A stretch of DNA of 64,000 nucleotides from Candidatus Sumerlaeaceae bacterium. GTDB taxonomy: Bacteria; Sumerlaeota; Sumerlaeia; Sumerlaeales; Sumerlaeaceae. Each line of letters opens with the position of its first letter. Positions within the stretch are counted from its first letter, which is position 1. The position numbers were made by a program, and so were the translations under genes. The stretch is taken from contig JBMFRB010000002.1 of assembly GCA_049968255.1 (NCBI GenBank), positions 288,001 to 352,000 on the forward strand, written 5' to 3'. Under the pieces are notes generated by a model. That model had not been told where the DNA came from and ran no database searches. It saw only the letters and a program-made list of their open reading frames with translations. Below are positions 27,015 to 42,871 of this stretch, one piece after another.

Positions 27015-27054
27015 GGACAAGCCACGCAATCCACGGGATGAGAAAGGCGTCCAC

Positions 27055-27540
27055 ATGAGAGAGCTGACATCGGTCCGCGAGTACTTCGGTACGGTATGGA
27101 ACGCGGTAAAAACCACCCTCGTGGGAATGGGTGTAACTGGCCGTTATTTTGTTAGCAAGCCGGTGACATTGCAATATCCTGACGAAAAACCAGAAATTCC
27201 ACCGGGCTACCGGGGGATCCACGTCTATGAGGTGGACCGATGCATTGCCTGTGATCAGTGCGCCATCGCTTGTCCCGTAGATTGTATCACCATAGAGAGT
27301 ATCGGCAAAGGCAAGAATGCGGTCCTGACGCGCTACGAGATTGATTATAATCGCTGCATGTTCTGCGGTCTGTGCATTGACCCGTGCCCAACGGATTGCC
27401 TTCACATGGGATTGAGCTACGATCTGACGCGTTTCCGCAGCGAGGAATGCTCCATAGATTTCGTTGAACTCTCAAAGAAGGGACTGCAGTCGCCCACAGG
27501 AGAGCGGGTGGTGTGGCTAGCAGAGCCAACACGCAAATAA
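27055..27540 (+). CDS. nuoI: NADH-quinone oxidoreductase subunit I-like 2x[4Fe-4S] protein
   Basis: VTLQYP, YRGIH, CIACDQCAIACP and CMFCGLCIDPCP motifs. Confidence 0.85.
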   Translation: MRELTSVREYFGTVWNAVKTTLVGMGVTGRYFVSKPVTLQYPDEKPEIPPGYRGIHVYEVDRCIACDQCAIACPVDCITIESIGKGKNAVLTRYEIDYNRCMFCGLCIDPCPTDCLHMGLSYDLTRFRSEECSIDFVELSKKGLQSPTGERVVWLAEPTRK

Positions 27541-27639
27541 AAATTCGAAGGCACCGATTTGCGTGATCGCACAGGGGAATGGGGTATGCGCAACTTCATG
27601 TTTGCGTTGAGAGTCTGTCTGCTGGCACGCTGAACTTAT

Positions 27640-29073
27640 ATGTCCAATGTTTTAGTTCTTGGTGTCGGTCCTTTACCCATAGACCCAACGGAGCGCCTGC
27701 ATGCTCCGGGCATCCGCGTCTGGCATCTGGCAAATGTTATCTATCGTCAGGGGCACAGCGTGGTCTTGGGAATCATTGAATTCGGGGATTTTCGGGACAA
27801 CCCTGAGGCAGCCAGCCGCCCCCGACAGGAGTCTGTGGGTGATCGCTTCAGCGTGTGCCGATTCCATTATCATTCTCAACGCACGCCAACGGCCATTGCC
27901 ACGCTTCACGAGCGTTGCAAGTTTCACTGCATCGTCTCAACTACCGACATCATGAATGACGCGGCGGCCCGAGTGCCGGTGCGTTTGCCGTTGTGGCTCG
28001 ATTATCTTGGCGACCCGTTGTGCGAGCGTCAGCTTCAGGCCGCAACTTTCGACAATGATGCATCGCTGCTCGATCTCTGGCGCGTGATGCTCGAAGCGCT
28101 TTTGCACGGCGACCATTTCAGCGTGGCTAGCACGCCCCAAAAATACACGCTCATTGGTCAGCTTGGCCTTGCAGGGCGGCTCAATCAGTTTACTGCTGCA
28201 CATGATCTTGTGTCTGTCATCCCCAATAGTGCTCGGGGAATCCTTGGGCAATCAGGCGCACAGCGACGGTTGATTAAAGGGTTCCTCATTCCAGCGGAAT
28301 CTTTTTTGTTGCTCTGGGCAGGGGGATATAACACCTGGACGGATCCCGAGACACTTTTTCATGGCCTGGAGCTCGCTATGCGCCGCGATGCTGACATTTA
28401 CTTTGTTTCGGTAGGCGGCGAGATACCCGGGCACGATAATGTGACATTTAAGCGTTTTCGTGAGATGTGCGAGGCGAGCGATTTGCGTTCGCATTTCGTC
28501 TTCATTGGTTGGGTCCCCCCCAGTGAGATGCCCAATTATTACATGCAGGCTGATGCGGCGATAAATATAGATCTTCCATGCTATGAGGCCGAAATTGGGA
28601 CACGTACGCGACTAGTGGACTGGATCGATTACGAGATTCCGGTGGTGACGACAGCGTTGTGCGAACCTGCCAAAATTCTGGCTGAGCGCAAACTTGTCGA
28701 ATCTTTTGAACCCGCTAGTCCCAAAAGCTTGGCTGATGCACTGGTACGGCTGAAAGAACACCACGAAGAAGCGAAAGTTCGAGCCCAAAAAGCGCGTACG
28801 TTCTTAGACGAACTTTTTGACGAAAAAAGAGACTTCGCCCCCTTGCTCGAATGGGTCGCAAACCCGACCTTAGCTCCTGATCGCCGTGTATCGGATCCTG
28901 GCGTGGCATCTCGTTCGTTGGATGTGCTTTTCCCCGATTGCGAAGTGGCTTACAAAAACGCCGAGCTACTGAGGCGCTTTTGTGGCGTTGCTGGTCGAAA
29001 AGGGGGGCCTTCCGCGACGACGTCATTTTGGCAGCGCGTGAAGAGGAGATTTTGGGGACGTCACAACAACTAA
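27640..29073 (+). CDS. GT-B glycosyltransferase-like protein
   Basis: APGIRVW, LWAGG...W.DP, FIGWVP and RTRLVDW...IPVVTT motifs; basic amphipathic C-terminal tail. Confidence 0.75.
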   Translation: MSNVLVLGVGPLPIDPTERLHAPGIRVWHLANVIYRQGHSVVLGIIEFGDFRDNPEAASRPRQESVGDRFSVCRFHYHSQRTPTAIATLHERCKFHCIVSTTDIMNDAAARVPVRLPLWLDYLGDPLCERQLQAATFDNDASLLDLWRVMLEALLHGDHFSVASTPQKYTLIGQLGLAGRLNQFTAAHDLVSVIPNSARGILGQSGAQRRLIKGFLIPAESFLLLWAGGYNTWTDPETLFHGLELAMRRDADIYFVSVGGEIPGHDNVTFKRFREMCEASDLRSHFVFIGWVPPSEMPNYYMQADAAINIDLPCYEAEIGTRTRLVDWIDYEIPVVTTALCEPAKILAERKLVESFEPASPKSLADALVRLKEHHEEAKVRAQKARTFLDELFDEKRDFAPLLEWVANPTLAPDRRVSDPGVASRSLDVLFPDCEVAYKNAELLRRFCGVAGRKGGPSATTSFWQRVKRRFWGRHNN

Positions 29074-29202
29074 GCAAAGACCTGGCACGAAAAGGGGCGA
29101 TTTGCCCACGCGCATGAAAAGCGCTCTCTCCACTATGTAGTCAGAGAAGGAAACAGATCGCATGTGTTCTGTTTCGATTCCTCTCTGAGACGGAAGGCTT
29201 TG

Positions 29203-30309
29203 ATGAGCACAATCGCATTAGAAACTCTATGGGCGGCGCTGCGCACCGTCATTGAGCCAGAGCTTGGCCGAGATATCGTGTCGCTGAATATGGTGAGAGA
29301 TTTGCAAGTTTGCGACGATGGCAAGGTCAGTGTGACAATAGTCCTGACGACGCCTGCCTGTCCTCTGAAAGCGGAGATTCAGGGCTCTGTGACGCGGGCC
29401 CTTATGCAGATTCCCGGTGTGCGACAGGTTGACGTGCAAATGACTGCAAACGTAACAAGCACGTGGACGTCTCAGGACCTCACGCCAGGAGTGCGCAACA
29501 TTATTGGGATCGCTTCGGCCAAGGGCGGAGTGGGGAAATCTACGGTAGCAGCCAACCTAGCCGTGGCACTTGCGAAGCTCGGGGCTAAAGTCGGTCTCCT
29601 AGACGCCGACATCTATGGTCCAAACATCCCCTTGATGTTTGGACTTCGCCAAGCTCAACCAGAAATTCGGACATATCCTCAATCCAATGGCGAGGAAATT
29701 GATAAACTGGTCCCCGTGGAGAATTACGGTGTTCGTGTCATGTCCATGGGCTTTCTCATTGATGAAGACCAACCCGTGATATGGCGCGGGCCTATGCTCA
29801 ATAGTGCGCTTCGCCAATTCTTGGGCCAGGTAGATTGGGGCGAATTGGATTACTTGATCGTCGATCTGCCGCCGGGGACGGGGGATGTGCAGATATCGCT
29901 GATCCAGCTCACGAAAATAACGGGAATCGTCCACGTGACGACTCCGCAAGAAGTGGCTCTGCAAGACGTGCGTAAGGGCATCACGATGTTTCGTTCCCAA
30001 AACATTGCGCTTTTGGGGATTATCGAAAATATGAGCTATTTTGTTTGTCCGAAGTGCGGTGAAGAGACGGCTATCTTTTCGCGGGGCGGTGGGCGCGAAG
30101 TTGCTGCCACCTACGGGATTCCTTTCCTTGGAGAGATTCCTCTCGTACCGCAGATCCGTGAAGCGGGAGACTCCGGTATGCCCATCGTCGCAGCTGCCCC
30201 GGAGAGCCAAATCGCCCAAAAGTACGTGGAGATCGCTACTCAGTTAGCAAGCCAGGTAAGTATGGCAAATTTCGCGCGGCAGAGCGAACTCATCCAGGCA
30301 AGGGAGTAG
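29203..30309 (+). CDS. Mrp/ApbC (NBP35 family) Fe-S cluster carrier ATPase
   Basis: N-terminal DUF59-like TTPACP, KGGVGKST, DADIYGP, WRGPM, DLPPGTGD and ENMS..CPKC motifs. Confidence 0.95.
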   Translation: MSTIALETLWAALRTVIEPELGRDIVSLNMVRDLQVCDDGKVSVTIVLTTPACPLKAEIQGSVTRALMQIPGVRQVDVQMTANVTSTWTSQDLTPGVRNIIGIASAKGGVGKSTVAANLAVALAKLGAKVGLLDADIYGPNIPLMFGLRQAQPEIRTYPQSNGEEIDKLVPVENYGVRVMSMGFLIDEDQPVIWRGPMLNSALRQFLGQVDWGELDYLIVDLPPGTGDVQISLIQLTKITGIVHVTTPQEVALQDVRKGITMFRSQNIALLGIIENMSYFVCPKCGEETAIFSRGGGREVAATYGIPFLGEIPLVPQIREAGDSGMPIVAAAPESQIAQKYVEIATQLASQVSMANFARQSELIQARE

Positions 30310-30311
30310 CG

Positions 30312-31433
30312 ATGAGTAGCAAAGGTGTGCGCAAGGAATCAATGAGTGTCCTCAGCGTATCGCAGCTTCCCCCGACGCAGCGAGACGGCAAATATGTTTT
30401 ACTGGGGGCCGATTTGCGAGAACTGCGTAATCTTGTCGAGCAGGCTGGCATGCCAGCTTTTCGTGCCAAACAACTCTTTCACTGGATGTATCACCGAGCT
30501 GCGCTTGCGTTCGAAGAGATGCACAACATCTCGCGCGGTTTCCAGCAATGGCTGGAAGAGCACTGTACTCTTGGTTATATTGATATCGCTGATGTCCGCG
30601 AGTCCCAGGACGGTTCAAAGAAAATCATTTTTCGCCTCGCCGATGGAAAGTTTGTCGAAAGCGTTTTGATCAAAGAAGACGATTGGTTCACGCTCTGCAT
30701 CTCTTCTCAGGTTGGTTGCGCAGTCGGTTGCACATTCTGCATGACGGGCTTTGGTGGTTTTCAGCGCAACATGACGCGAGCGGAGATTCTTGCTCAAGTT
30801 CTCCTCGTTAAGCGTGCAATCCACGGGGAACTACCTCGTAATGTTGTTCTCATGGGGATGGGAGAACCGCTTCTCAATCTCGAGGAAGTCATTCCCGCCC
30901 TGAAAGTCATGGTTGATCCCGAGGGCATTGCTATCGCGGCAAGGCGAGTGACCGTTTCGACAAGTGGAATCATCCCGGCGATGAAGAAGTTGGGGGAAGC
31001 GGATCTTGGCGTGAGTTTGGCGGTTTCTCTCAATGCGACAACCGATTCCGTGCGCGATGTTCTCATGCCGATCAATAAAACCTATCCAATCCAGGCTCTG
31101 CTTGACGCGTGTCGCGAGTATCCATTGCGTCCGCGCCGGCGCATCACATTCGAATACGTGCTTCTCAAGGACATCAATGATTCGCTTGAAGATGCTCGTC
31201 GACTGGCGCGGTTACTTCAGGGAATCCCGTGCAAAGTGAACCTTATCCCTTTCAACTCAGATCCTCATCTTCCTTTTGAACGACCACCCGAGGAGCGTGT
31301 GTTGGCCTTTCAGGACTATCTGTATCGAAAAAATTACACCGCCATCATTCGCTACTCAAAAGGGCTCGATGTAAACGGTGCGTGCGGGCAACTTGCTGCA
31401 CATTGGCGAGCACTTGCTCAGCAGGAGAGATGA
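30312..31433 (+). CDS. rlmN: Dual-specificity rRNA/tRNA m2A methyltransferase
   Basis: CISSQVGCAVGCTFC, MGMGEP and the terminal GACGQL motif. Confidence 0.96.
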   Translation: MSSKGVRKESMSVLSVSQLPPTQRDGKYVLLGADLRELRNLVEQAGMPAFRAKQLFHWMYHRAALAFEEMHNISRGFQQWLEEHCTLGYIDIADVRESQDGSKKIIFRLADGKFVESVLIKEDDWFTLCISSQVGCAVGCTFCMTGFGGFQRNMTRAEILAQVLLVKRAIHGELPRNVVLMGMGEPLLNLEEVIPALKVMVDPEGIAIAARRVTVSTSGIIPAMKKLGEADLGVSLAVSLNATTDSVRDVLMPINKTYPIQALLDACREYPLRPRRRITFEYVLLKDINDSLEDARRLARLLQGIPCKVNLIPFNSDPHLPFERPPEERVLAFQDYLYRKNYTAIIRYSKGLDVNGACGQLAAHWRALAQQER

Positions 31434-31437
31434 GGCA

Positions 31438-32211
31438 ATGGTTGAGTCCGTCCCCGTGATCTCTTGGCGTTTCCGTGAGTACGTACTAACTCCATCTTTT
31501 ATGCACCTTCCGTGGCTTGCGGTAGGAACGAGCACACGTCAGCTCGTGCCTCCAATGTCTCGTAGTTCCGATGCAGCATTGGCAATGCGAACCGCGCTGC
31601 AGCTCGAAAAGCTTCCAGTTGTTTTTTGCAGGCAGCAGCACACCGATCGCATACATGTCATTCGCGACGCCGGGGAATTGCGATTTGAGAATCCTAGTCA
31701 GCACGTCGTCATTGACTCTTGCGATGGGTTGATTACTTGTGTTGCTGGGCTCGCTTTGGCAATCTTCACCGCAGACTGTGTGCCAATTGTTTTTATCGAG
31801 GCCGCTCGTCGAATCGTGGGAGTTGTGCATGCTGGCTGGCGTGGCACCTATGCGCAGATAGCTTTGCGTGCGTTGGAAAAAATTACACAACTGGACGGAC
31901 AATTGGCTAACGTTTGGGTGTGGCTTGGCCCTGCGATCGGTGGATGCTGTTACGAAATCGGCGAAGAGCTGGCAAATGACTTTGCAAAGAGGTTCCAACA
32001 TTTGGCTTCACTCGATGGAGCGTTTCTTAGCGGACGCTATCTCGATTTGATTCAACTTAATAGGCTGCAACTCATCTCTGCGGGTATTCCTGGCTCGCAC
32101 ATCAAGGCGAGTGGCATTTGCACGAAGCACTCGCTGGACCGTTTTTACTCGTATCGTGCGGAAGGCGAACAAGCGGGCCGGATTGTGACAATGATTGCGC
32201 GCACTGAGTGA
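31438..32211 (+). CDS. pgeF: PgeF/YfiH family (peptidoglycan editing factor / purine nucleoside phosphorylase-like)
   Basis: QQH, TADCVP, HAGWRG, GPAIGGCCYE and FYSYR motifs. Confidence 0.92.
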   Translation: MVESVPVISWRFREYVLTPSFMHLPWLAVGTSTRQLVPPMSRSSDAALAMRTALQLEKLPVVFCRQQHTDRIHVIRDAGELRFENPSQHVVIDSCDGLITCVAGLALAIFTADCVPIVFIEAARRIVGVVHAGWRGTYAQIALRALEKITQLDGQLANVWVWLGPAIGGCCYEIGEELANDFAKRFQHLASLDGAFLSGRYLDLIQLNRLQLISAGIPGSHIKASGICTKHSLDRFYSYRAEGEQAGRIVTMIARTE

Positions 32212-33155
32212 GACAGCGCATGAACTCGTCTCCCGAGGTGATCGTGATTACGGGGCCGACGGCTGTAGGCAAAACCGCGGCAGCAATAGAACTAGCGAGA
32301 CGGCTGCGAACCGAAGTTATCTCAGCCGATTCGATGCAAGTCTACAAGGTGCTTTCGATTGGTACCGCCAAGCCTACTGCGGACGAGCTCCAAGGTGTTA
32401 CTTATCATCTCGTGGATTTTGTGGACCCGAATTATCAATTTAACCTGGGAGATTATGTTGCTCTGGCCACGCCCATTGTGGAAAGGCTCACAGCACAAGG
32501 GCGCACGCCTATTGTTTGCGGTGGCACCTGCATGTACCTCAAGGGCCTGCTCCATGGAGTTTTTGATTTGCCCTCGCGCGACGAATCGGTCAGACGGATG
32601 TTGGCCGCACGCTGCGAACGTGATGGAGTGGGGGCCCTCTATGCGGAGCTGCGCAACATTGATCCACACGCAACGCACATCATGCCCAACGACCGCCAAC
32701 GGATTTTGCGCGCGTTAGAAGTTTTTTATGTCACGGGTAAGCCAATTTCTCAGCTCCAACGTCAGTTTCGCTCCGAGATGCGTTATAAGGCGGCAATCTT
32801 TGTGCTCAATATGGAGCGCGCCAAACTCTACAAAAGAATCGAAGAGCGAGTTAATCACATGTTATCATCGGGTTGGGTACAGGAGGTTGAAGAATACATG
32901 CGAGCTGGGTACTCACTGGAAAATCCAGCAATTCGTGCTCTTGGTTATCAGGAAATCATCGCGTACTTGCGGGGTGAGACGACTTATGAGGAGGCTGTGA
33001 AGGCTATCAAGCGTAAGACCCGTAACTTTGCAAAGCGCCAGCTCACATGGCTTCGCGCGATGAAGGACGCCACTTGGGTGGATGTCGAATCCAAATCGTC
33101 GGAGGAAATTGCACTCGAGATTATGAAGAGAGTGTCGCCGCACGCAAATGGGTGA
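32208..33155 (+). CDS. miaA: tRNA dimethylallyltransferase
   Basis: GPTAVGKT, SADSMQVY, GTAKP, RILRALEV and AKRQLTW motifs. Confidence 0.97.
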   Translation: MRQRMNSSPEVIVITGPTAVGKTAAAIELARRLRTEVISADSMQVYKVLSIGTAKPTADELQGVTYHLVDFVDPNYQFNLGDYVALATPIVERLTAQGRTPIVCGGTCMYLKGLLHGVFDLPSRDESVRRMLAARCERDGVGALYAELRNIDPHATHIMPNDRQRILRALEVFYVTGKPISQLQRQFRSEMRYKAAIFVLNMERAKLYKRIEERVNHMLSSGWVQEVEEYMRAGYSLENPAIRALGYQEIIAYLRGETTYEEAVKAIKRKTRNFAKRQLTWLRAMKDATWVDVESKSSEEIALEIMKRVSPHANG

Positions 33156-33249
33156 TCGTTTTTCGTTGCGCTGCGTTTGGCGCACCGCTTAGCCTAGCAA
33201 TCGTATTCAGTTTTCCGAAACAACGATGGGTGAAAAGGGAGTTTTTTGA

Positions 33250-33639
33250 ATGCCGAAAGCAGCAGGTAACCTTCAGGACAGCGTGCTCAATCAACTCCGC
33301 AAGGACAACGCGGAGGTAGAATTTTTCTTTTTGTCTGGGAAATCCATTCGCGGAACTGTGAGAGGGTTTGACAACTTCACCATCATCGTCCGCGACACTG
33401 AAGGACATCATCACCTTGTTTACAAACACGCTGTAGCGCACGTGGCAAGCGAGAGACCCTTTGGTCTGCGCCAACAACAACCTGCTGCTGGACAGAAGCG
33501 CGTTGCACCTCAACCGAAAACCGAGGAGAGCGAAAGTGGGGAGGGCGCGTCAAAGGCGCCTGAAGATTCGGAAAAGAAAAAAGGCGGAAAGGAGCCTTTT
33601 AATCGGATTGATCTCTCGCAAATAAAACTTTCCGAATAA
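33250..33639 (+). CDS. hfq: RNA chaperone Hfq with a long C-terminal tail
   Basis: LQDSVLN helix, FDNFTI and LVYKHA motifs; classic miaA-hfq order. Confidence 0.93.
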   Translation: MPKAAGNLQDSVLNQLRKDNAEVEFFFLSGKSIRGTVRGFDNFTIIVRDTEGHHHLVYKHAVAHVASERPFGLRQQQPAAGQKRVAPQPKTEESESGEGASKAPEDSEKKKGGKEPFNRIDLSQIKLSE

Positions 33640-33668
33640 GGGGAATTCTTTTCCCCTTAAGATTTTTT
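33637..33668 (+). terminator. Hairpin terminator between convergent hfq and the radical SAM gene
   Basis: TAAGGGGAA-ttctt-TTCCCCTTA 9-bp stem followed by AGATTTTTT. Confidence 0.65.
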
Positions 33669-35723
33669 ATGCGGGAAAAGACGGGAGAGTTTTGAGACAA
33701 GTCCCTGGGGTTTCTGTGCATTCTGCAGTTGGGCCTCGAGGTATTCGCACTGCTTTTCAAGATCAAGAACGCGTAATTGCAGCTCGCTAACACGTTTTGC
33801 CTTTTTTGCACATTCCTCCTTAGCAATTCGCTCTTGTTCTCTGCATTGGGCAAGTTCCACCTCGAGCGCTTGAATCCGCGAGTTGAGCTTTTCGAGCTCC
33901 GATTGCAGTTGCTGCTGAAGAAGTTGCTCGGCTTCCCGTGCCCTTACGAGCGACGCCTCTTGAACGAGAATCGGGTCGGCGATCCATAAGTGAACTTCCT
34001 CTGGCTCCGGGGCATTTGCTTCGAACAGAAGCACCAACTGTCCTGCAGAAATTTCCTCAGGAATAGGGATGAGCAGCTCGCGCCAGCGGCCAGCAATGCG
34101 CCCATGATTTGGTCCAAAATGCTTTTCTGCGAGGACCACTCGCTGATCATTGCATAGACACGCAATTTCCAAGCGAGCGGAAGCGTTGCGCGCAGACAAA
34201 TAGCGTTCGCTTTTCTCAGGAAGCGAAAGCGCCATTTGGAGCACCGAGTTATCTGGAAAAGCGACCGAGGGAAAGACAATTGCGACCGTTGGAACGAGAG
34301 TGAGAACGGAGCGAGTGCCATTCTTCGCCGTGTAGGCCTGAAGCGCAATGGTGCCACTGCTTCTGAACGCTAACTGCGTGTTGGGGAGATAATGGAAAAA
34401 ACTCTGCAACGCATGCGTGGGAGCGGCCGGAAGCGAAGAAACAGCTTTCGCAATGGCGACAAGGGTAATTTCGTTCAGAAAGGACTGAAATTGCTCTTTG
34501 CTCACGTTGCCACAGCTGAAGCCACAAGCAAGAGCGGAGAGGGGACGGCTCGGCTGCTGCAAAGCTTGAAGTTTCGGCCGGCAGTACTCCCCTAGTGGGG
34601 TCTTCTCCACTGGAAAATAGGCCCGCCATTCGATGGTGCTTGCTTTGAGCGCCTTGAAGAATGTCAGCGTTTCCTGCTCATGTGACTCATTCTCAAGGGG
34701 CAGACCTAACATCACGCGAGCACAAATTTTTATCCCAATTTCTGCTGCCAAATCACAGGTATTCACAATGCACTCGTTCAGCAGATTTCTTGTCGCAATG
34801 CGCTTGCGGAATTGCTCGTTGCCCGTTTCGACGCCTATATTGAGAATGCGACATCCCCCTTGGTATAGAAGCTCAAGTGCTTCTCGGTCGAGGCGCTCAA
34901 CTGCAACTGTGGCCTCCCACGGAGGAAGCTCTAAGCCTCGCACATGCTGGAGGAAGGCGCGTAGCCACGTTTTGGTCACCGGAAACATTTCATCCGTGAA
35001 CACAATACGCGAATAAGACCTGCGCCGAAGTGCGCCAAGAAGCTCGCCAGCCACGTGTCCCGCAGCGCGAGGGCGGTAAAAATCTCCTTTTCCAGCATAG
35101 GCCCGAGCCATCAAGGGGACAAAACAGAATGTGCATTCGTGGGGGCATCCGAGAGACGCACGCAAAGCGAGTGGGGCATCGTCCGGAAACCTTAGCCAAT
35201 CGTTTTCTATGAGTGAGCGGTCTGGCAGCGGCAGGACATCCGGATTATCGATCAGTGGGCGGAGAGGATTTCGCGCGATTTCGCCATCGGCTCTGCGCAG
35301 CCAGAGATTTCTAATTTGCGAGAATTTTTCTTCTCTATCCCAAACTCCGACAAGCTCGAAAAGCGCGCTCTCTGGCTCACCTGCGACGATGTAATCGAAA
35401 CCTGGGTGATGGAGGATCGTTTCGGGTGCCAGAACCGTGTAAGGCCCTACGGCGATTGTTTGAACATTTGGATATTTTTGCCGGAATCTCTGCGCAAAAT
35501 CGGCTGTTGCCGAAAAGTTAAACTCGTCCAAATAAAAAATCGCCACGTTCGGCGTTGTCTCAAGGCGTTGCGAAACTTGTTCACATGACTCAAACCATCC
35601 AAAGAGTGTGCTTCGCACATCGTGGTTAGCATCGGCTAACATTTGGTGCATGGTGCCAATTTCCAGCAGATGGCTCGCACGGGATGGAGCGCCCACGTCG
35701 CAGTACAAAAATGCAGCTCGCAT
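33657..35723 (-). CDS. Cobalamin-binding-type radical SAM protein with a C-terminal beta domain and coiled coil
   Basis: DYIVAGEPE, LPLPDRSL, CPHECTFC (CxxxCxxC), GVETG and MLGLP motifs; heptad-rich C-terminus. Confidence 0.85.
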   Translation of the reverse strand: MRAAFLYCDVGAPSRASHLLEIGTMHQMLADANHDVRSTLFGWFESCEQVSQRLETTPNVAIFYLDEFNFSATADFAQRFRQKYPNVQTIAVGPYTVLAPETILHHPGFDYIVAGEPESALFELVGVWDREEKFSQIRNLWLRRADGEIARNPLRPLIDNPDVLPLPDRSLIENDWLRFPDDAPLALRASLGCPHECTFCFVPLMARAYAGKGDFYRPRAAGHVAGELLGALRRRSYSRIVFTDEMFPVTKTWLRAFLQHVRGLELPPWEATVAVERLDREALELLYQGGCRILNIGVETGNEQFRKRIATRNLLNECIVNTCDLAAEIGIKICARVMLGLPLENESHEQETLTFFKALKASTIEWRAYFPVEKTPLGEYCRPKLQALQQPSRPLSALACGFSCGNVSKEQFQSFLNEITLVAIAKAVSSLPAAPTHALQSFFHYLPNTQLAFRSSGTIALQAYTAKNGTRSVLTLVPTVAIVFPSVAFPDNSVLQMALSLPEKSERYLSARNASARLEIACLCNDQRVVLAEKHFGPNHGRIAGRWRELLIPIPEEISAGQLVLLFEANAPEPEEVHLWIADPILVQEASLVRAREAEQLLQQQLQSELEKLNSRIQALEVELAQCREQERIAKEECAKKAKRVSELQLRVLDLEKQCEYLEAQLQNAQKPQGLVSKLSRLFPHKKS

Positions 35724-35787
35724 GAGCTTCCTTTTGAGAAAACTCTCGTTTCAAAGCAAGGTTTTACTCAACGATTTACTGTCTGGC

Positions 35788-37671
35788 TCATTCGTACATG
35801 CTATCAATGAGTCGAGCAAATCTGGCCGTGATAACATTGCGTTTTGGCTTCAGGGTTTGCGTCAGCAAACCATTTTCAGGCGAAAACGGCTCTTCGAGCA
35901 GGCGCACGTGCTGGATGAATTCATAAACACGAAAGTTTCCGTCTTTTTTCAGCGTTGCGTTGATGCTTTCCTTTACAATCCGTGCCGCGTCAGGATGGCT
36001 AATGATGTCCGCGGCTGGGGTGTCGGTGGGAAGCTGAAGAGCCACGGCAAGCTGAGCAAAATCTGGCACAACCAAGGCACCTAGTGCTTTTTTATCCTGT
36101 CCGACAACCACGATTTGCTGAACGAGAGGGCTCTTGCGTGCAACCGATTCGATTGGCTCTGGCTCGACATTCTCTCCGCTAGACAGGACAATGGTGTCCT
36201 TAGCACGTCCGCAGATAACCAGATGGCCCTGCCAAGTAAACCATCCCAAATCGCCTGTATTGAACCATCCATCCTCCGTGAGGACTCTTTTTGTTTCTTC
36301 ATCGTTCCGATAGTATCCGGACATGACTTGCGGCCCTTTGGCCCAGATAACACCAGTTTTCCCGGGAGGCAGAACCTGGCCGTCCTCATCACGGATTTCG
36401 ATCGTTGTTCCGAGGAGTGGTTTCCCCACCGTGCCCCGTATGTTTTCTTTCAGTGTGCGCACTGCTAGCACTGGCGATGTCTCTGTGAGTCCGTAGCCAT
36501 TGAGAATTGGGATCCCAACAGCTTCAAAAAAATCATCAAGATAGGGAGCAAGCGAGCCTCCCCCGCTGACGGCTGCCTTGAGCCGCGAGCCTGTCATTGT
36601 TCGAATTTTACGATAAAGCAGCAAATCCGCGAGCAAATGCGGAACGGTGAGAATGAGCATGCTGAGTGTGGCCTTCCACTTTTCGCCGAGTGTAGGCGGA
36701 GCCGCAGCGGCGTTGTGCTCGCGCACGATTCGACGATTCTTGATGTAGTGACGACTCAGATCAAGCAGTTTCAGAACTAAGGCACGGCGGCCACGGGGGA
36801 ATTTATCCAGTTTTGCCATGATGGCGTCATAGACCGACTCCCAAATCCGCGGAACGCAGGGAAGAAAAGCGGGATTGGCTTTGCTCATGTCGTCGCGTAG
36901 CCAGCGCTTATCCGTGTAGTAAATCGTTGTGCCGTGATACATGCCAAAATACTCGGCGATCCGCTCGTAGACATGCCATGACGGCAAAATGGAGAGAAGT
37001 ACATCACCCGGCTTGATCTCAAACCCGAGGTCTATCGCTTCGCACTGGTAGAGAAAATTCCTGTGGCGTAGAGGTACTCCCTTGGGAATGCCTGTGGTAC
37101 CAGAAGTATAGACGATGGCCGCAATGTCATCGCTGGTTGTTGCCTGGCACGCGTCGTCGAAGGTTGATGTCAATGTGGCGCCTTTATGTACAGTTTCTTC
37201 GAAATCGTAGATCTCGAGGCCGGAATCCCGGCGCATTGCGCTAGCTGAGTTGTCGAACATGATGAGGCACTGAAGGCTGGGTGCGCCAGAGATCTCTTTA
37301 GCAAGCCGGTCAAAAAGTTTTCGGTTTTCGAGAATGACGACCTTCGCTTCGCTATGATTAATAATGTACCAGATTTCTGCAAGACTCGTATCCGAGCCGC
37401 GCGGCACACTGATGGCGCCAATGGAGAGAATGGCGAGGTCGGAAATGATCCACTCCGGCTGGTTATCTGATATAAGAGCAATCCGATCGCCTTTCTGAAC
37501 TCCAAGCGCAAGCAAGCCGGCTCCGAAAGCACGCACCTTTTCTCCCATTTCTCCGTAGGTCATGAGTAACGGGGGATTGCGGTGCGGGGCGTGAAGAGCG
37601 GGGATGTGGCCATATTTTTCTACGCAATTTTGAAAGACGGCGCCGATTGTTGAACTCATGAGCCCTACCAC
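35788..37671 (-). CDS. Long-chain fatty acid-CoA ligase (AMP-dependent synthetase)
   Basis: YTSGTTGIPKG, GYGLTE, TGDLG, GRAKD and TLKPKR motifs. Confidence 0.93.
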   Translation of the reverse strand: MVGLMSSTIGAVFQNCVEKYGHIPALHAPHRNPPLLMTYGEMGEKVRAFGAGLLALGVQKGDRIALISDNQPEWIISDLAILSIGAISVPRGSDTSLAEIWYIINHSEAKVVILENRKLFDRLAKEISGAPSLQCLIMFDNSASAMRRDSGLEIYDFEETVHKGATLTSTFDDACQATTSDDIAAIVYTSGTTGIPKGVPLRHRNFLYQCEAIDLGFEIKPGDVLLSILPSWHVYERIAEYFGMYHGTTIYYTDKRWLRDDMSKANPAFLPCVPRIWESVYDAIMAKLDKFPRGRRALVLKLLDLSRHYIKNRRIVREHNAAAAPPTLGEKWKATLSMLILTVPHLLADLLLYRKIRTMTGSRLKAAVSGGGSLAPYLDDFFEAVGIPILNGYGLTETSPVLAVRTLKENIRGTVGKPLLGTTIEIRDEDGQVLPPGKTGVIWAKGPQVMSGYYRNDEETKRVLTEDGWFNTGDLGWFTWQGHLVICGRAKDTIVLSSGENVEPEPIESVARKSPLVQQIVVVGQDKKALGALVVPDFAQLAVALQLPTDTPAADIISHPDAARIVKESINATLKKDGNFRVYEFIQHVRLLEEPFSPENGLLTQTLKPKRNVITARFARLIDSMYE

Positions 37672-37817: not shown

Positions 37818-39293
37818 TCACATTGCCCCGTAACCCGTGGCCACGACATAGATGGTTTTGAGCAAAATTTTGAAATCGAGCCAAAGCGACCAGTTATCGA
37901 TATACTCCAGGTCTAGCTTCATCCAAACATCGAACGGTAGTTTGTTGCGACCATTCACCTGCCAAAGACATGTGATACCTGGTTTCATGGAAAGACGCCG
38001 GCGCTGCCAGCGATCGTATTTCTCCACTTCTGAGGGGATGGGTGGGCGCGGCCCCACAAGACTCATCTCACCACGCAGTACATTCCACAGTTGTGGTAGC
38101 TCATCTATGCTTGTCTTGCGGATGAACTTGCCGATGGGGGTGATGCGTGGATCGTCGCGCATTTTAAACACAGGGCCACCCATGAGGTTTTTGTCGCGCA
38201 GCTTGTCCACCTCTTTGTCGGCGCCGACCCTCATCGAGCGAAATTTCCAACACGTGAAGCGTTTGCCATTGAGCCCGCAGCGCGTTTGTCCGTAAAAAAT
38301 CGGGTCGCTCCACGATTCGGATGTTATCTTTATAAGAATAGCAGTGACGATGAAAACGGGTGATAGCAGAACGAGGAGAACGAAAGCAGCCACCCGATCA
38401 AATGCGTATTTGAAAAGCAAGGCGCCGTTCATTTCCCGCGTTGGGAAATAGGAAACCATGGGAACGGTTTCGAACATATCAAGCACGGGGCGCGCAATGC
38501 TGGGTCGAAAGAAGTTGAGCGACAGGCGCGTGCGAATTCCCATTTCTTCGCATTGTTCAAAATACGGCGCAAGGAGTGCCAAGGGAGTGGATTCGGGAAG
38601 GAAAACGACCTCGTCGACAGGCTGCTTCTCCAAAAAGGGAACCAGCGATTTCAAAGTGCCGACGACGGGGATGTTTTGGACAAATTTGGCTTCACGGCTA
38701 GTGTCGTCCACAATCCCGATAATCCTGAACCCCCACCAGGGGTGATCTTCGATCAATTTGAGAAAACGCCGTAAGGACTCACCACTTCCCACAAGCAGGA
38801 GTGTGTGCTCCTTAGTTGAGGCCATGCGCCACCGGCAAAGCATGCGCTGAATAATCGCGGTCTTGAGACCAAGTAGCACGATCAGAACGAATGGGAAAAT
38901 AATAATGACAGAGCGGCTAATTTTCTCGATTCCTACGGGGGCAACCTCGCTGCGCGAAGAACGTCCCTGGACAAAAAAGGCGATCACAATAAGACCAACC
39001 GTCGCCTGAAATGCAGCGGTTAATAAAGTTCCGAGTGGCGTTTTGCCCTCTCCCCATTCAGAAAGGTCGTAATAACGCTGATGGGCAAGACACACAACAG
39101 TGACAACGGGAGCAGCGACGAACAACCACCAGTAGTCCTCGATTTGCGATGGTCCACGCAGAAGCGTAGGGAAAAAATATGGCGCCAGGATTTCGTTGCG
39201 AAGCCAATGAGCGGCCGCGACGCTTGCAGCAGCCACTACTGCGTCGGCAAGCATGTTGACACGCGAGAATATATAGCGGCGCTCTTTTAGCAT
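37818..39293 (-). CDS. Polyprenyl-phosphate sugar phosphotransferase (WcaJ/WbaP-like)
   Basis: N-terminal TMs, CoA-binding-like domain, and KFRSM, DELPQL, MSLVGPRP, KPGIT motifs. Confidence 0.94.
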   Translation of the reverse strand: MLKERRYIFSRVNMLADAVVAAASVAAAHWLRNEILAPYFFPTLLRGPSQIEDYWWLFVAAPVVTVVCLAHQRYYDLSEWGEGKTPLGTLLTAAFQATVGLIVIAFFVQGRSSRSEVAPVGIEKISRSVIIIFPFVLIVLLGLKTAIIQRMLCRWRMASTKEHTLLLVGSGESLRRFLKLIEDHPWWGFRIIGIVDDTSREAKFVQNIPVVGTLKSLVPFLEKQPVDEVVFLPESTPLALLAPYFEQCEEMGIRTRLSLNFFRPSIARPVLDMFETVPMVSYFPTREMNGALLFKYAFDRVAAFVLLVLLSPVFIVTAILIKITSESWSDPIFYGQTRCGLNGKRFTCWKFRSMRVGADKEVDKLRDKNLMGGPVFKMRDDPRITPIGKFIRKTSIDELPQLWNVLRGEMSLVGPRPPIPSEVEKYDRWQRRRLSMKPGITCLWQVNGRNKLPFDVWMKLDLEYIDNWSLWLDFKILLKTIYVVATGYGAM

Positions 39294-40213: not shown

Positions 40214-40336
40214 AAAATCCTTGCTAGGCAAAGCCACGTTGTTGCTCAAGCGTATATGAGACGCGCGTTCAGCAGGGGGACAAACACAATCTGATGGTAT
40301 TTGACATTTTACGGAGGAGGGCGGATCCGAAGTCCT

Positions 40337-42871
40337 ATGACTCAGAAACACAAAATCGTGTGCGTACTTTTCTTAACCGCGGTTTTTTTTGTTTCGGCAA
40401 GTGGGCATGCCGACAAACTTGTTTTTCGTACGGGTAGTGTGATCGAGGGGATAATTCTTGAGGAAACAGCGGACCATATTCTTTTTCGCGATCGCAGCGG
40501 AGAAGTCCGCAGCTATAGCAAAACGTTGTTGCAGTCCGTTCAGCGCGAGGAGTCCGCGCTTGGCACCAGTGTGGCGGATGTATTGCAGCGTGCTAGGAGT
40601 TATCGCCAAGCAGGCAAATTCGACGCCGCGCTGGAGGTTCTCGTGCAAGCAGCCGCGAATGCGCCTGGAAGTGCCAACGCTTTGTCTGAGGAATTTCAGG
40701 CGACGCTCTTCCAGCTCGATGCGGCGCTCAAGGAAGTGTATCCGCGCGATAAAAGACGAGCTCGCGAACTTCTTGTCACAAGACAGAAAAGCTTGCAAAG
40801 CTCTGGGACTTTGCTTCTCGTCCCGGCCAGGGCAACTCTCGAGTCATGGCGAAAAGAAACCAGCAAATCACTAGCTGCGATAGACTATGAGTTGGCGGTG
40901 TCATTCTCGCAGCAGCCTAATAAACTTCCACAAATTCGGGAACTACTCCTCGAGGCTATTGCACTCGACCCACAAAACGCGAATGCACATCTTTATCTCG
41001 CGGATACGGCCCTGGCACTGGACGATATCGCATTGGCTATGCGCGAATATAAAACGGCGTTGGGATTTTCGGGAACAAGTACAGAATTTCGTCAGCGTGC
41101 CGAACAAGGCTTGCAGGTAGCTCAAGCTCGATTAGCAGCTCGGCAAACACCAGCTCCGGTGCGCACGCAACTCGAGTTGCAATCCCCACCAGGTACCCAA
41201 TCGCTCTCGCCACAGCCCGAGGCTCAGCCGTCGACAAAGTTTGCCGTCTGGCTGGCTATCGTGGAGCAGCGTCTGGAAAAAACTGGCATCATGGCTTATG
41301 TTCGCCCGGTCTGGCGCGAAATAAGTAGTGGAGAATACAATGCGTACCTTATTGGGGTCCCCTCTTTTGTTTTTGTGTTTTGGCTTCTCCCTTACTGGTT
41401 CGTCCGCTACCGCTCGAAAAATGGCGATGTGCTGGCAGCAGAGCTTCGTGAGCCCGCCAAGAAAATTGGTTTGGTGGCTTTACTGCTTTACCTCGGGCGT
41501 GCGTTGAAATCGGCAAAACCGAAAAACCGCTGTCCCTTTTGTAACAAGAGCCTCGATAAATTGGATGCTTACACGGATCTCAACTTCTACGCCTGCCCGC
41601 ACTGCCATGAACCGATAACGCCAATTTATGATCTCAAGGATTACATAGACCATCTCGTCAAACAGATCGAGCTCCAACTCAAGCACTCGAAAGAAAGCGT
41701 CATCGCGGGCGTCGAACGTGATCTCATGCTGAAGCTCGTGCGCGCGGTTATAACACTAGCAGTGCGCAGACGCGCCAGCGATTTGCATTTGGAGACCGAG
41801 GTCGACGGCGCCAAGCTCCGTGTCCGCATCGACGGCATGATGTACGATTTCATGCATTTACCGCGCAGCGTGTCGTTGGCGTTTATTTCGGCTTTGAAAA
41901 TCATGGCGAACCTCGACATCACCGAACGGCGAATTCCGCAGGACGGCAAGATCGGCATGTGGATAGATAAGGTAGATCTTGACCTACGCATCAACACCAG
42001 CCCCGCAGCCATGGGAGAAAAGGTCACTATTCGAATTTTAAATCCGAAAAGCATTGCTGTAGATCCGGTGCGGCTTGGCCTGGAGGGTGAGAATCTTGAA
42101 CGATTTGAACGAGCGATTCATCGTCCGCACGGCATGATTATCGTCACTGGGCCGGCTGGCTCAGGCAAGTCTACCACGCTTTACGTGGCACTGAACCTCA
42201 TCAACACAGGGGAAAAGAACATTGTGACCTTAGAGGACCCCATCGAGTACCAGATCAAAGGGGCGTCGCAAATGCAGGTCAACCCTGCTACCAATTTTAC
42301 TTTTGCCACGGGACTGCGTTCAATCCTTCGCCAGGATCCCGATGTGATTATGGTCGGCGAGATTCGGGATTCTGAAACAGCCGAGATTGCGGTCGAAGCT
42401 GCTTTGACTGGGCACTTGCTGCTGACAACTCTTCACACGATTGATTCGGCCACAGCGTTCGCGCGCATGGCAGATCTTGGTGTGGACACATCGCGGATGG
42501 CAAGTGCGCTCATTTGCATCATTGCCCAACGTCTCGTCCGCACGATCTGCCCGAACTGTAAGAAACCTTACAAACCAAAACGAGAGCTGCTTGAGCAACT
42601 CAACGTCGTCGAAGTACCACGGGATTTCACTTTCGTGCATGGGGCAGGCTGTGCCGAGTGCATGAATACAGGCTACTGTGGCAGAATGGGATTGTTTGAA
42701 TTCCTCATGCCCGATGACCAGATGCGCGAGGTGCTCGAAGGGGCCCCGCCTGTGTCAGTTATCAGAGAACTCTCGCGGAAAAAAGGATTTGCTTCGCTGA
42801 AAGAAGAAGGTGTGCGTCGAGTGCTCAGCGGACTCACAACTGTCGAAGAAGTTTTGCGGGTGACAAGCTGA
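40337..42871 (+). CDS. PilB/GspE-family secretion ATPase with an N-terminal signal peptide, TPR region and TM segment
   Basis: RASDLHLE, PQDG, GPAGSGKST, LRQDPDVIMVGEIRD, TGHLLLTTLH and CPNC..CAEC motifs; N-terminal half atypical. Confidence 0.9.
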   Translation: MTQKHKIVCVLFLTAVFFVSASGHADKLVFRTGSVIEGIILEETADHILFRDRSGEVRSYSKTLLQSVQREESALGTSVADVLQRARSYRQAGKFDAALEVLVQAAANAPGSANALSEEFQATLFQLDAALKEVYPRDKRRARELLVTRQKSLQSSGTLLLVPARATLESWRKETSKSLAAIDYELAVSFSQQPNKLPQIRELLLEAIALDPQNANAHLYLADTALALDDIALAMREYKTALGFSGTSTEFRQRAEQGLQVAQARLAARQTPAPVRTQLELQSPPGTQSLSPQPEAQPSTKFAVWLAIVEQRLEKTGIMAYVRPVWREISSGEYNAYLIGVPSFVFVFWLLPYWFVRYRSKNGDVLAAELREPAKKIGLVALLLYLGRALKSAKPKNRCPFCNKSLDKLDAYTDLNFYACPHCHEPITPIYDLKDYIDHLVKQIELQLKHSKESVIAGVERDLMLKLVRAVITLAVRRRASDLHLETEVDGAKLRVRIDGMMYDFMHLPRSVSLAFISALKIMANLDITERRIPQDGKIGMWIDKVDLDLRINTSPAAMGEKVTIRILNPKSIAVDPVRLGLEGENLERFERAIHRPHGMIIVTGPAGSGKSTTLYVALNLINTGEKNIVTLEDPIEYQIKGASQMQVNPATNFTFATGLRSILRQDPDVIMVGEIRDSETAEIAVEAALTGHLLLTTLHTIDSATAFARMADLGVDTSRMASALICIIAQRLVRTICPNCKKPYKPKRELLEQLNVVEVPRDFTFVHGAGCAECMNTGYCGRMGLFEFLMPDDQMREVLEGAPPVSVIRELSRKKGFASLKEEGVRRVLSGLTTVEEVLRVTS

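Follow-up and report, generated by a model that had tools for sequence, protein, structure and literature searches.

The known class B radical SAM enzymes are soluble and tailor antibiotics, cofactors, peptides and a small number of lipids. The solved structures MgmA (9ccb), TsrM (6wte/6wtf), CysS (9n1b-d), TokK (7kdx/7kdy), OxsB (5ul2-4) and the cobalamin-free AprD4 (6fd2) share a Rossmann domain and a barrel with the CxxxCxxC motif, and to our knowledge none of them has a jelly roll, a coiled coil or a membrane tail. The words coiled, carbohydrate-binding, polysaccharide and membrane are absent from the main text of a 2026 review of class B. Literature searches found no radical SAM paper in connection with coiled coil, molecular ruler or WbdD, no link between B12-dependent radical SAM enzymes and polysaccharide, O-antigen or glycosyltransferase, and nothing relevant on Sumerlaeota and lipid.

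A design in which catalysis is held at a set height has been documented for glycan chain-length control, in WbdD and WbbB, with kinase, methyltransferase or glycosyltransferase chemistry. The extreme C-terminus of WbdD consists of amphipathic membrane helices. According to the available part of one account, WbdD of E. coli O9a (708 residues) consists of a catalytic head, a C-terminal coil and a contact end, and its C-terminal region is about 250 residues long and trimeric (PMC3482155). Two further systems offer partial likenesses to the protein described below. HpnJ and the calditol synthase Cds are radical SAM enzymes proposed to rearrange a lipid-attached sugar head group, and the accessible portion of the source reports no stalk or tail for either (PMC13459092). 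In C-terminal targeting of the MinD/FtsA type, a short basic amphipathic helix stands at the end of the protein and binding is expected only when two copies are joined; MinD dimers bind membranes, as the part of the source at hand states (PMC6771821).

Here, we describe a gene in a 64,000-nucleotide stretch of DNA from a Candidatus Sumerlaeaceae bacterium (the window). Its 688-residue product joins a B12-type radical SAM enzyme to a jelly roll, a fixed-length stalk and a putative membrane tail, a build that has not been described for this enzyme class. The features of the gene, its product and its upstream neighbours are as follows.

33657..35723, minus strand: the whole gene, 688 codons plus stop, a single open reading frame (ORF list and translation)
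35727..35732, minus strand: Shine-Dalgarno-like AGGAAG, 3 nt ahead of the ATG (read directly in the sequence)
33637..33659, no strand assigned: hairpin with a 9-pair stem, overlapping the gene's stop codon, between the convergent hfq and enzyme genes (terminator-like scan)
35334..35723, minus strand: residues 1-130, Rossmann, B12-binding-type domain (PF02310, model, Foldseek)
34560..35171, minus strand: residues 185-388, radical SAM barrel (PF04055 and model)
35124..35147, minus strand: residues 193-200, CPHECTFC, the CxxxCxxC cluster motif (conservation)
34413..34559, minus strand: residues 389-437, loop of low conservation, with pLDDT falling to 56, and a helical linker (model)
33960..34412, minus strand: residues 438-588, jelly-roll beta-sandwich with the invariant W547 (domain model, Foldseek, VIA-align)
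33714..33959, minus strand: residues 589-670, single 82-residue heptad helix, the predicted coiled-coil stalk (model and heptad analysis)
33660..33713, minus strand: residues 671-688, KPQG linker and basic amphipathic tail LVSKLSRLFPHKKS (hydrophobic moment, charge)
35788..37671, minus strand: upstream neighbour, 64 bp off, AMP-binding, of the long-chain acyl-CoA-ligase type (PF00501, 1.2e-83)
37818..39293, minus strand: second upstream neighbour, polyprenyl glycosylphosphotransferase of the WcaJ/EPS type (TIGR03025, 403.5 bits, cut-off 295.55)

The AlphaFold2 model of the protein has a mean pLDDT of 91.6, with strands across residues 438-588 and then an unbroken helix at 589-670; the last 18 residues are of low confidence, with pLDDT below 50 at 671-678 and 682-688. 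An earlier note on this DNA had picked out five features of the protein from its sequence, and all five were found and are kept in relatives. Thirteen full-length homologs are 32-59% identical to the protein.

The catalytic part has the class B (B12-domain) radical SAM fold. At residues 191-355 the Pfam family Radical_SAM (PF04055) scores 55.2 bits against a cut-off of 29.5, which places the protein among radical SAM enzymes, and C193, C197 and C200 are invariant in the full-length homologs (13/13) and kept in at least 90% across 41 aligned relatives. The class B-like enzyme with a B12-binding-type N-domain and the CPHECTFC motif that the earlier note had recognised is thus borne out in its domains, with B12-binding (PF02310, residues 26-124) at 27.8 bits, just under its cut-off of 32.1, and with residues 1-130 alternating between strand and helix in the model. 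In Foldseek searches, the best structures are those of class B: MgmA (4.4e-21), TsrM, AprD4, CysS, OxsB and TokK, at E values of 4e-21 to 1e-16 over about 430-470 columns and 15-17% identity. The Rossmann fold matches the class B structures and, equally, cobalamin-free AprD4, and the part of the source available states that AprD4-like enzymes do not bind cobalamin (PMC12931638). A corrinoid adenosyltransferase is present in the window's genome, and CobS was not found in that genome, which is 95.75% complete. From sequence and model, the enzyme may use cobalamin.

Which named enzymes stand closest? Twenty NCBIfam families match the protein, none at its cut-off. HpnJ (TIGR03471) is the best of these (9.7e-29), but with 100.5 bits against a cut-off of 577.6 the protein is not a member; nor does it belong to the AprD4 family NF033070 (9e-11, 41.3 bits against 500). 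By sequence search AprD4 is also the best solved sequence (3.8e-11), followed by 9ccb (5e-8) and TokK (1e-4). These nearest named enzymes by profile, HpnJ and AprD4, work on sugars of lipids or glycosides. The earlier note had considered that the protein might instead cluster with lipid or hopanoid radical SAM enzymes; no family cut-off is reached, and no hopanoid genes were seen in the window. The second-best NCBIfam match, ApyD (2.1e-25), is a radical SAM enzyme of RiPPs, and with it comes the idea of a peptide or protein substrate, in a RiPP-like maturation or the modification of an envelope protein, with a C39-like peptidase or an ABC ATPase as partner. A Peptidase_C39_2 protein is encoded nearby in 5 of the 21 loci with the coil-bearing form, and an ABC ATPase directly downstream in 2. 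However, ApyD scores 89 bits against a cut-off of 750, Pfam finds no SPASM or RiPP-recognition domain in the protein, and the C39-like gene is convergent with the enzyme gene, not co-transcribed, and encodes a signal-anchor-like segment. We regard a peptide substrate as improbable.

The middle domain, for which the earlier note had asked whether it is CBM-like, is a jelly roll with a fold like that of CBMs in the AlphaFold2 model and by Foldseek. Modelled separately, residues 438-588 reach a pLDDT of 92.7, and Foldseek matches them to CBM11, CBM22, CBM4 and CBM6 at E values of about 1e-6 and TM scores of 0.41-0.57. VIA-align gives Z scores of 10-12 to reelin repeats, a xanthanase module and CBM27, CBM29 and CBM51; the scores to CBM27, CBM29, CBM51 and CBM8 (10-11) are level with those to non-CBM jelly rolls. 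Altogether 175 chains reach a Z score of at least 8, among them reelin, MAM and ephrin-receptor domains, so the jelly-roll match is generic. No CBM family of Pfam matches the domain. Kinship to Wzt_C was considered and rejected: hhalign against an alignment of four Wzt_C (PF14524) domains gave a profile-profile probability of 0.3% (E 0.21). The domain is present in 69 of 252 family sequences by a profile test; W547 is its sole invariant residue (41/41), and 90% or more retain P584. The fold is CBM-like, and the domain may bind a carbohydrate.

The coiled coil and amphipathic helix that the earlier note had described are likewise confirmed and conserved. A leucine-zipper-type Pfam match spans residues 592-670, and in the best heptad frame L, I, V or M occupies 56% of the a and d positions, as against 8-35% in the other six frames. 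The same pattern holds in 28 of 28 coil-bearing relatives, in which the a and d positions are hydrophobic at fractions of 0.50-0.75 versus 0.16-0.36 elsewhere. If straight, 82 residues with a rise of about 0.15 nm each would form a stalk of roughly 12 nm. Coil length has a median of 82 residues and a range of 65-87 (n=28) despite a mean identity of 25%; this combination fits the signature of spacer coiled coils, namely conserved length with drifting sequence, as given in the accessible part of the source (PMC5082667). The tail, in windows starting at residues 673-675, reaches hydrophobic moments of 0.59-0.66, whereas the 95th percentile within the protein is 0.576, and its net charge is +2 to +7 in all 28 relatives. 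By moment and charge it is a predicted C-terminal amphipathic membrane-targeting helix. Its consensus across the family, roughly G-L-x-x-K/R-L-K/R-x-L/I-F-K/R-K, appears to resemble the MinD tail motif. In contrast to MinD/FtsA-type targeting, the protein is without an ATPase switch and its dimerisation would be constitutive, via the coil. Searching the window's genome by tblastn for further copies of the coil or beta domain gave no match at E <0.1.

The full build is kept in 28 of the 41 aligned relatives, all in one clade; within the window's phylum (labelled Sumerlaeota/Hydrogenedentota), 14 of 75 genomes carry it. FastTree recovers the coil form as one clade with support 88, and IQ-TREE gives an SH-aLRT of 99 to the coil clade together with one beta-only protein; the coil form has a single origin. 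FastTree also joined all beta-domain forms and the coil clade in a group of 92 rows (support 96), but IQ-TREE did not reproduce this group, and we do not rely on it.

The explanation that we tentatively prefer is that of a radical SAM enzyme of the class B type, tethered to the membrane and probably dimeric, whose target is the sugar or polyol portion of a substrate anchored in the membrane; the coil would serve as a spacer. The enzyme would be cytoplasmic, its coil pairing two (or three) chains and its paired tails holding the complex at the inner face of the cytoplasmic membrane, while the stalk would fix the distance to the beta-sandwich and the catalytic barrel. The substrate would be a glycan linked to a lipid or else the head group of a glycolipid; the beta-sandwich would bind its sugar or polyol part, and the radical SAM centre would abstract a hydrogen from it. 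If cobalamin is bound, methylation would result; if it is absent, the outcome would be dehydration or rearrangement, as with AprD4 or in the reaction proposed for HpnJ. This explanation draws on the catalytic fold and its nearest named enzymes (HpnJ and AprD4), the beta domain, the coil and tail, the single origin of the coil form, the corrinoid adenosyltransferase, the envelope and lipid genes among the neighbours and the glycan contexts of the non-coil relatives.

Neighbourhoods were counted at 21 loci with the coil form and at 53 annotated loci of non-coil relatives. In the window, the co-oriented upstream genes are those named in the earlier note, a WcaJ-like initiating transferase and an acyl-CoA ligase (Pfam, TIGR03025); NCBIfam long-chain-fatty-acid-CoA ligase models match the ligase, each below its cut-off. 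An initiating sugar transferase occurs in 8/21 coil-bearing loci, all in one subclade, and the acyl-CoA ligase in 9/21, in the same subclade. In the other subclade the housekeeping gene pgsA lies directly upstream and co-oriented (8/21), with a gap of -8 to 83 bp to the enzyme gene at the three loci measured. This adjoining copy is the sole pgsA above cut-off in genomes G029 and G026, and pgsA is also upstream of two contig-cut enzyme genes, L145 and L156; in the window's genome it is 148 kb from the enzyme gene. A polytopic membrane protein with TPR repeats is encoded downstream in 4/21 loci; PDB and NCBIfam searches with it gave matches to the TPR part only, none to the membrane domain. By and large, the coil form sits in housekeeping blocks (hfq, miaA, rlmN, panC, pgsA), whose conservation may reflect shared descent and not function, and no coil-bearing locus is a compact glycan locus.

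The earlier note had proposed a WbdD-like glycan regulator. Such a terminator and ruler would use radical chemistry to cap a polyprenol-linked glycan at its non-reducing end once the chain has grown to the height set by the coil, and the carbohydrate-binding domain of Wzt would read the cap. The analogy of architecture stands, and that architecture is conserved: the order of parts and the size (688 residues against 708) are like those of WbdD, whose C-terminal end is needed for contacts with the membrane or a partner, as the available part of the source has it (PMC3482155), the coil drifts in sequence while its length is kept, and the beta domain is CBM-like. Moreover, the genome holds Wzm and a Wzt with Wzt_C on another contig, in a locus that shows no methyltransferase or kinase able to cap the chain, and a Wzm/Wzt(Wzt_C)/GT2 locus harbours beta-domain relatives that are devoid of the coil. 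The role as a terminator or ruler of an ABC-transporter-dependent glycan finds no direct support. Unlike wbdD, which lies in a Wzm/Wzt locus, the enzyme gene is never beside Wzm (0/21 coil-bearing loci); the only ABC ATPases (2/21) are short and generic, their Wzt-like matches being generic ATPase domains, and the transferase is found in only 8/21. The search for Wzm/Wzt and glycosyltransferase genes near full-length homologs that the earlier note had suggested thus gave nothing for Wzm and, for glycosyltransferases, family-4 matches in 6/21 loci, mostly several genes off. Since Wzt_C is present in 73 of 75 genomes of the phylum, with or without the enzyme gene, its co-occurrence is uninformative. 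The Wzt-linked relatives come from one lineage (branch lengths 0.14-0.22) without the coil, the coil of 82 residues contrasts with the trimeric region of about 250 in WbdD, and the catalytic parts are non-homologous, with no kinase or methyltransferase family of Pfam in the protein and hence no WbdD-type capping domain. Considering all of this, a WbdD-like terminator is quite unlikely.

Were it true, the protein would be the first radical SAM coiled-coil ruler, a tethered dimer or trimer whose fixed 12-nm stalk would bring the catalytic head within reach of glycan chains of one given length only, and whose radical end cap (for example a C-methyl group) would so set the length of a surface polymer in Sumerlaeota, a prospect that we consider doubtful; the looser link between B12-type radical SAM enzymes and glycan loci would then mark a wider, undescribed radical tailoring of bacterial surface glycans. 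More generally, the conserved fusion of a sugar-binding-type fold, a length-conserved stalk and a membrane tail would fix how high over the membrane a class B enzyme stands. With a lipid-linked glycan or glycolipid as substrate, this would amount to radical, possibly C-methylating, tailoring or sizing of surface polymers, in a compact and testable model protein; with a bulk lipid as substrate, the protein would be an addition to the bacterial radical SAM enzymes that modify lipids, from a phylum about which little is known. Because the family is small and its hosts are uncultured, the immediate practical weight is modest.

Perhaps, then, the substrate is the bulk phospholipid itself, either its acyl chains (by methylation or C-C coupling) or the glycerol head of phosphatidylglycerol, with the tail resting on the membrane and the coil serving only to dimerise. 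The neighbours lend this some plausibility: pgsA is directly upstream in one whole subclade (8/21, plus L145 and L156) and a gene of the long-chain acyl-CoA-ligase type in the other (9/21). Lipid radical SAM profiles are among the best matches (HpnJ and the ladderane-associated TIGR04072, 1e-16), and known lipid-tailoring radical SAM enzymes include members with a B12 domain, according to the accessible part of the source (PMC13459092). However, the lipid-family profiles all score far under their cut-offs, the CBM-like domain and the length-conserved stalk would have no obvious role in an enzyme of lipid tails, and the contexts of the non-coil relatives are glycan, not lipid. In addition, pgsA and the ligase are never together beside the enzyme gene, pgsA is distant in the window's genome, and the ligase is not co-distributed with the enzyme. 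Ligase orthologs (E up to 1e-80) occur in 12 of 75 genomes, including the related genomes G060, G062 and G064, in which the coil enzyme was not found, only its paralogs; the ortholog is absent at the E threshold in the enzyme-bearing families f6, f9 and f11. With ligase occurring without enzyme and enzyme without ligase, the ligase as an obligate partner was rejected. A phospholipid substrate is unlikely. Separately, a PLD-like neighbour at locus L040 was considered as a cardiolipin synthase and rejected, for it scores NucT/DrmC-like.

The surroundings in the window could also suggest an RNA-modifying enzyme, in line with the RNA-modification genes around it: the gene is convergent with hfq-miaA and near rlmN, miaB and mnmG, a beta-CASP RNase gene lies between enzyme and ligase genes in three genomes, and MiaB and RimO are among the Foldseek matches (1e-15 to 1e-11). 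The class B structures score higher than these, though, Pfam finds no TRAM or other RNA-binding domain, and neither the membrane-seeking tail nor the pgsA context of the other subclade fits an RNA substrate, which is highly improbable.

Several of the same observations weigh on our preferred explanation, a spacer-mounted enzyme of membrane-anchored sugars or polyols. A stalk of 12 nm fits poorly with an enzyme that would have to touch a lipid head group; there is no compact glycan locus, the neighbours are largely housekeeping genes, the ligase does not share the enzyme's distribution, the match to jelly rolls is a generic one and the beta domain shows no profile similarity to Wzt_C. The missing CobS and the sub-cut-off B12-binding score also count against it, as do 29 of 53 non-coil loci with no glycan gene nearby, 7 of which lie behind a methyltransferase flanked by ruvA or yebC. 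In the other 24 of 53 non-coil loci, genes for a glycosyltransferase, flippase, Wzt or initiating transferase lie within 2-4 genes; 11 of the 53 were chosen by length or tree position, so the sample behind their share of this count (10/11) is not free of bias. In one lineage, beta-domain forms are flanked by Wzm/Wzt(Wzt_C), GT2 and SPASM radical SAM genes. Relatives of the enzyme do therefore occur in glycan loci, and the concern raised in the earlier note, that homologs might never do so, falls away.

More distant relatives were sought in a genome collection and a protein atlas. No Protein Atlas match reaches 0.9, and the best, to viral radical SAM clusters (0.83-0.85), are leads only. A scan of the genome collection with the 13-sequence alignment, keyed on the generic cluster motif, returned 80 loci at 23-33% identity, mostly matching in the catalytic domains only, and the 14 of these loci that were examined encode shorter proteins of 372-555 residues.

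The enzyme combines a radical SAM catalytic part of class B fold with a conserved CBM-like domain, a coiled coil of conserved length and a conserved basic amphipathic end. An AGGAAG motif can be read in the sequence 3 nt 5' of the ATG. At the other end of the gene, a hairpin with a stem of 9 pairs overlaps the stop codon and faces the convergent hfq gene of the window. The AlphaFold2 model used below was built on 41 relatives and has a mean pLDDT of 91.6.

Features of the enzyme (window coordinates for the gene, residues for the protein)
33657-35723, minus strand: open reading frame of 688 codons (ORF list and translation)
Residues 26-124: B12-binding, Pfam, 27.8 bits, just below the cut-off of 32.1
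Residues 191-355: Radical_SAM, Pfam, 55.2 bits against a cut-off of 29.5
Residues 592-670: leucine-zipper-type match, Pfam
Residues 1-130, approximately: Rossmann domain, AlphaFold2 model
Residues 184-388, approximately: radical SAM barrel, AlphaFold2 model
Residues 389-448: weak loop and helices, AlphaFold2 model
Residues 438-588: all-beta domain, AlphaFold2 model
Residues 589-670: single unbroken helix, AlphaFold2 model
Last 18 residues: C-terminal end, low confidence, AlphaFold2 model

In Foldseek, the first 430-470 columns of the model fall with class B radical SAM structures, namely MgmA (4.4e-21), TsrM, AprD4, CysS, OxsB and TokK, with identities of 15-17% throughout. A sequence comparison with solved proteins ranks AprD4 first (3.8e-11), before 9ccb (5e-8) and TokK (1e-4). 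Twenty NCBIfam families match the enzyme, each far below its own cut-off, with HpnJ the best (100.5 bits against 577.6) and the RiPP enzyme ApyD (89.2 against 750), PhpK-type P-methylases and a ladderane-associated lipid model also near the top. The enzyme may or may not use cobalamin: the Rossmann domain scores below the Pfam cut-off, and AprD4-like enzymes have no cobalamin (PMC12931638). The genome encodes a corrinoid adenosyltransferase, but a search of it for CobS found none.

The beta domain, folded separately from 15 orthologs (pLDDT 92.7), is predicted to be a jelly-roll sandwich. Its top Foldseek matches are CBM11, CBM22, CBM4 and CBM6 modules (E about 1e-6, TM 0.41-0.57), and a structure search independent of Foldseek gave 175 chains at Z of at least 8, including reelin repeats, a xanthanase module, CBM27/29/51/8, MAM and ephrin-receptor domains at Z 10-12. 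For the fold, both searches answer yes to the question raised in the earlier note, whether the middle domain is CBM-like. The jelly-roll fold is a common one, so this predicted likeness is no proof of sugar binding. Kinship with Wzt_C was rejected, since profile comparison with Wzt_C domains gave a probability of 0.3%.

The heptad-patterned coil and the amphipathic basic tail, both proposed earlier from the sequence, stand up well. In the best heptad frame, L/I/V/M occupy 56% of a/d positions, as against 8-35% in the other six, and the segment holds no glycine and a single proline, at its extreme end. The pattern recurs in all 28 aligned coil-bearing sequences (hydrophobic fraction 0.50-0.75 at a/d and 0.16-0.36 elsewhere), and the last 18 residues carry a net charge of +2 to +7 in each of the 28. 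Tail windows starting at residues 673-675 have hydrophobic moments of 0.59-0.66, the protein's own 95th percentile being 0.576. A straight helix of 82 residues spans about 12 nm. That length is the median among the 28 (range 65-87, sd 5.2), while mean identity in the coil is only 25%. According to a review (PMC5082667), spacer coiled coils are recognised by a length that is kept while the sequence diverges, and the coil matches this.

The full form is narrowly distributed. A word-indexed search returned 13 proteins of 669-711 aa (32-59% identity, 95-100% of the query), all from sources named Sumerlaeaceae or Hydrogenedentota. An exhaustive search gave 25,158 relatives at E <=0.001, and only about 20 of the best 150 extend through the coil. 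Among 41 aligned sequences, 28 continue for 89-114 residues beyond the conserved Pro584, 12 reach only 5-22 residues past it, as beta-only proteins of 585-602 aa, and one runs on for 158. The full form was confirmed in 14 of 75 genomes of the phylum, namely the window's own and G055, G056, G066, G059, G065, G063, G057, G026, G027, G029, G008, G021 and G022. G028 holds a contig-cut piece of the gene, G030 a variant of 744 aa that has the beta domain and ends differently, and G036 a beta-only form; the remaining matches are shorter paralogs. FastTree, run on the catalytic part, groups the 48 coil-bearing rows in one clade (support 88), and IQ-TREE, with 91 rows, places the coil-bearing rows and the G036 protein on one side of a branch with support 99. 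The addition of stalk and tail was therefore a single event. A wider FastTree grouping of all beta-domain forms was not recovered by IQ-TREE and was not used.

Twenty-one loci of the coil form (20 distinct; L134 repeats L043) were annotated with Pfam and then searched with the neighbours' proteins. Acyl-CoA-ligase-type genes and hfq each occur in 9 of the 21, an initiating sugar transferase and pgsA each in 8, Peptidase_C39_2 in 5, a polytopic membrane protein with C-terminal TPR in 4 and a beta-CASP RNase in 3. The earlier note had read the enzyme as a radical SAM chain terminator with a molecular ruler, like WbdD, and looked to Wzm/Wzt beside full-length homologs; Wzm is found in none of the 21 loci and a Wzt-like match in two. 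With its defining genomic link to Wzm/Wzt and polymerase absent, this reading is unlikely.

Two conserved neighbourhoods, envelope or lipid, alternate instead, and they divide cleanly by subclade. Subclade A, which includes the window's family, keeps panC, transferase, ligase and enzyme facing hfq-miaA. In three of its genomes a beta-CASP/RMMBL RNase gene lies between ligase and enzyme (L034:8496-9899, L036:6695-8101, L041:11097-12503), with an EamA transporter gene inserted as well in L036. Subclade B has a co-oriented pgsA immediately upstream of the enzyme (intergenic distances 83, -8 and 3 bp for L037, L038 and L043, respectively), scoring 133-156 bits against the TIGR00560 cut-off of 109.1 and, in G029 and G026, the sole copy above it. 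The contig-cut genes of L145 and L156, beside a CDP-alcohol phosphatidyltransferase gene, probably belong here too. Downstream in subclade B are TPR membrane proteins of 529-544 aa (L038:2517-4106, starting 7 bp past the enzyme gene; L157:9696-11330; L162:6093-7694; L180:4251-5864), whose first 400 residues contain 7-9 hydrophobic segments, with C-terminal TPR repeats and no Pfam, NCBIfam or PDB sequence match to the membrane part.

The pgsA and ligase neighbours favour an action on bulk phospholipid, which fits poorly with the CBM-like domain and stalk and which we consider unlikely. The genome of the window has pgsA 148 kb from the enzyme gene; the ligase ortholog occurs in 12 of the 75 genomes, three of them with enzyme paralogs only, and the subclade B families lack it at E 1e-80. 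Both linkages may therefore owe as much to an inherited order of housekeeping genes as to functional coupling.

From the domains, the conserved coil and tail, the single origin and the neighbourhoods we tentatively infer a membrane-tethered, coil-paired enzyme whose target would be the polar portion, sugar or polyol, of a molecule anchored in the membrane, the coil serving as a spacer; we put this forward as possible, somewhat short of probable. A peptide substrate is a minor option of low likelihood and an RNA substrate a scarcely credible one, and some probability is reserved for readings not considered. Full-text searches, which covered open-access papers, brought up no radical SAM enzyme described as having a coiled-coil stalk, CBM-like domain or membrane tail. 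Nor do the words coiled, carbohydrate-binding, polysaccharide and membrane occur in the main text of a 2026 review on B12-dependent radical SAM enzymes.

Relatives without the coil were sampled by a metagenome scan with the family motif [RK]NPLR[PN]L, which gave 80 loci, seven with the full form. After omission of 2 duplicates and 18 short or uncalled loci, 53 were annotated, 11 picked for length or tree position and 42, each having two or more neighbours, in list order. Of the 53, 24 have a glycosyltransferase, flippase, Wzt or initiating-transferase gene no more than 2-4 genes away (10 of the 11 picked as against 14 of the 42), and 29 have none nearby. This is plainest in one lineage of beta-domain forms, of 612-616 aa (L136, L140, L193), which lie between GT2, methyltransferase, Wzm, Wzt with Wzt_C, three SPASM radical SAM genes and a second B12-type enzyme. 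L193:126-14008 (also L136, L140) contains GT2, methyltransferase, Wzm, Wzt with Wzt_C, GT2 and the 616-aa B12-type radical SAM with jelly-roll; three SPASM or plain radical SAM genes, the second B12-type enzyme (603 aa) and a hexapeptide acyltransferase complete L193, placing five radical SAM enzymes within one ABC-transporter-type glycan operon. The operon L184:404-11320 encodes a heptose-like nucleotide-sugar route (nucleotidyltransferase, GHMP kinase, SIS isomerase) with a methyltransferase, four B12-type and one plain radical SAM enzymes, an EamA-like gene and GT2. Other B12-type radical SAM paralogs of the phylum lie about 1.3-1.6 kb from Wzt_C-bearing genes (G016:C58, G074:C221, G015:C56, G020:C22); the three checked, of G016, G074 and G015, lack the beta domain. 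In seven of the 29 glycan-free loci (L155, L168, L170, L173, L174, L188, L191) a radical SAM gene of a separate subfamily, about 487 aa with C-terminus ...AGPCYT..EG.VKVW, directly follows a Methyltransf_11 gene of 320-349 aa, flanked by ruvA (five loci) or yebC (two); L155 and its relatives L159 and L169 have a Holliday-resolvase-like gene next.

A different contig of the window's genome (C3, 338000-357900) encodes Wzm and Wzt with Wzt_C, which carries little weight, as Wzt_C occurs in 73 of the 75 genomes. Wzt_C domains usually read a terminal cap. That locus holds an O-antigen-ligase-like gene, two GT4, two TPR proteins, an ArnT/PMT-like gene and lpxK, with no methyltransferase or kinase able to make a terminal cap and no evident capping enzyme; the corrinoid adenosyltransferase gene is just upstream. 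Elsewhere in the window, an 819-aa ORF with 11 hydrophobic segments (46958-49417, plus strand) has no Pfam or NCBIfam match, and genes for RNA modification or RNA binding (miaB-type, rlmN, miaA, hfq, mnmG) are dense on either side of the enzyme gene, at 25617-33639 and 44108-46024, with a CCA-adding enzyme gene at 17673-19118. An 856-aa type II/IV secretion ATPase (40301-42871, plus strand; T2SSE, 2.6e-120) is extended at its N-terminus by some 470 residues that include TPR repeats.
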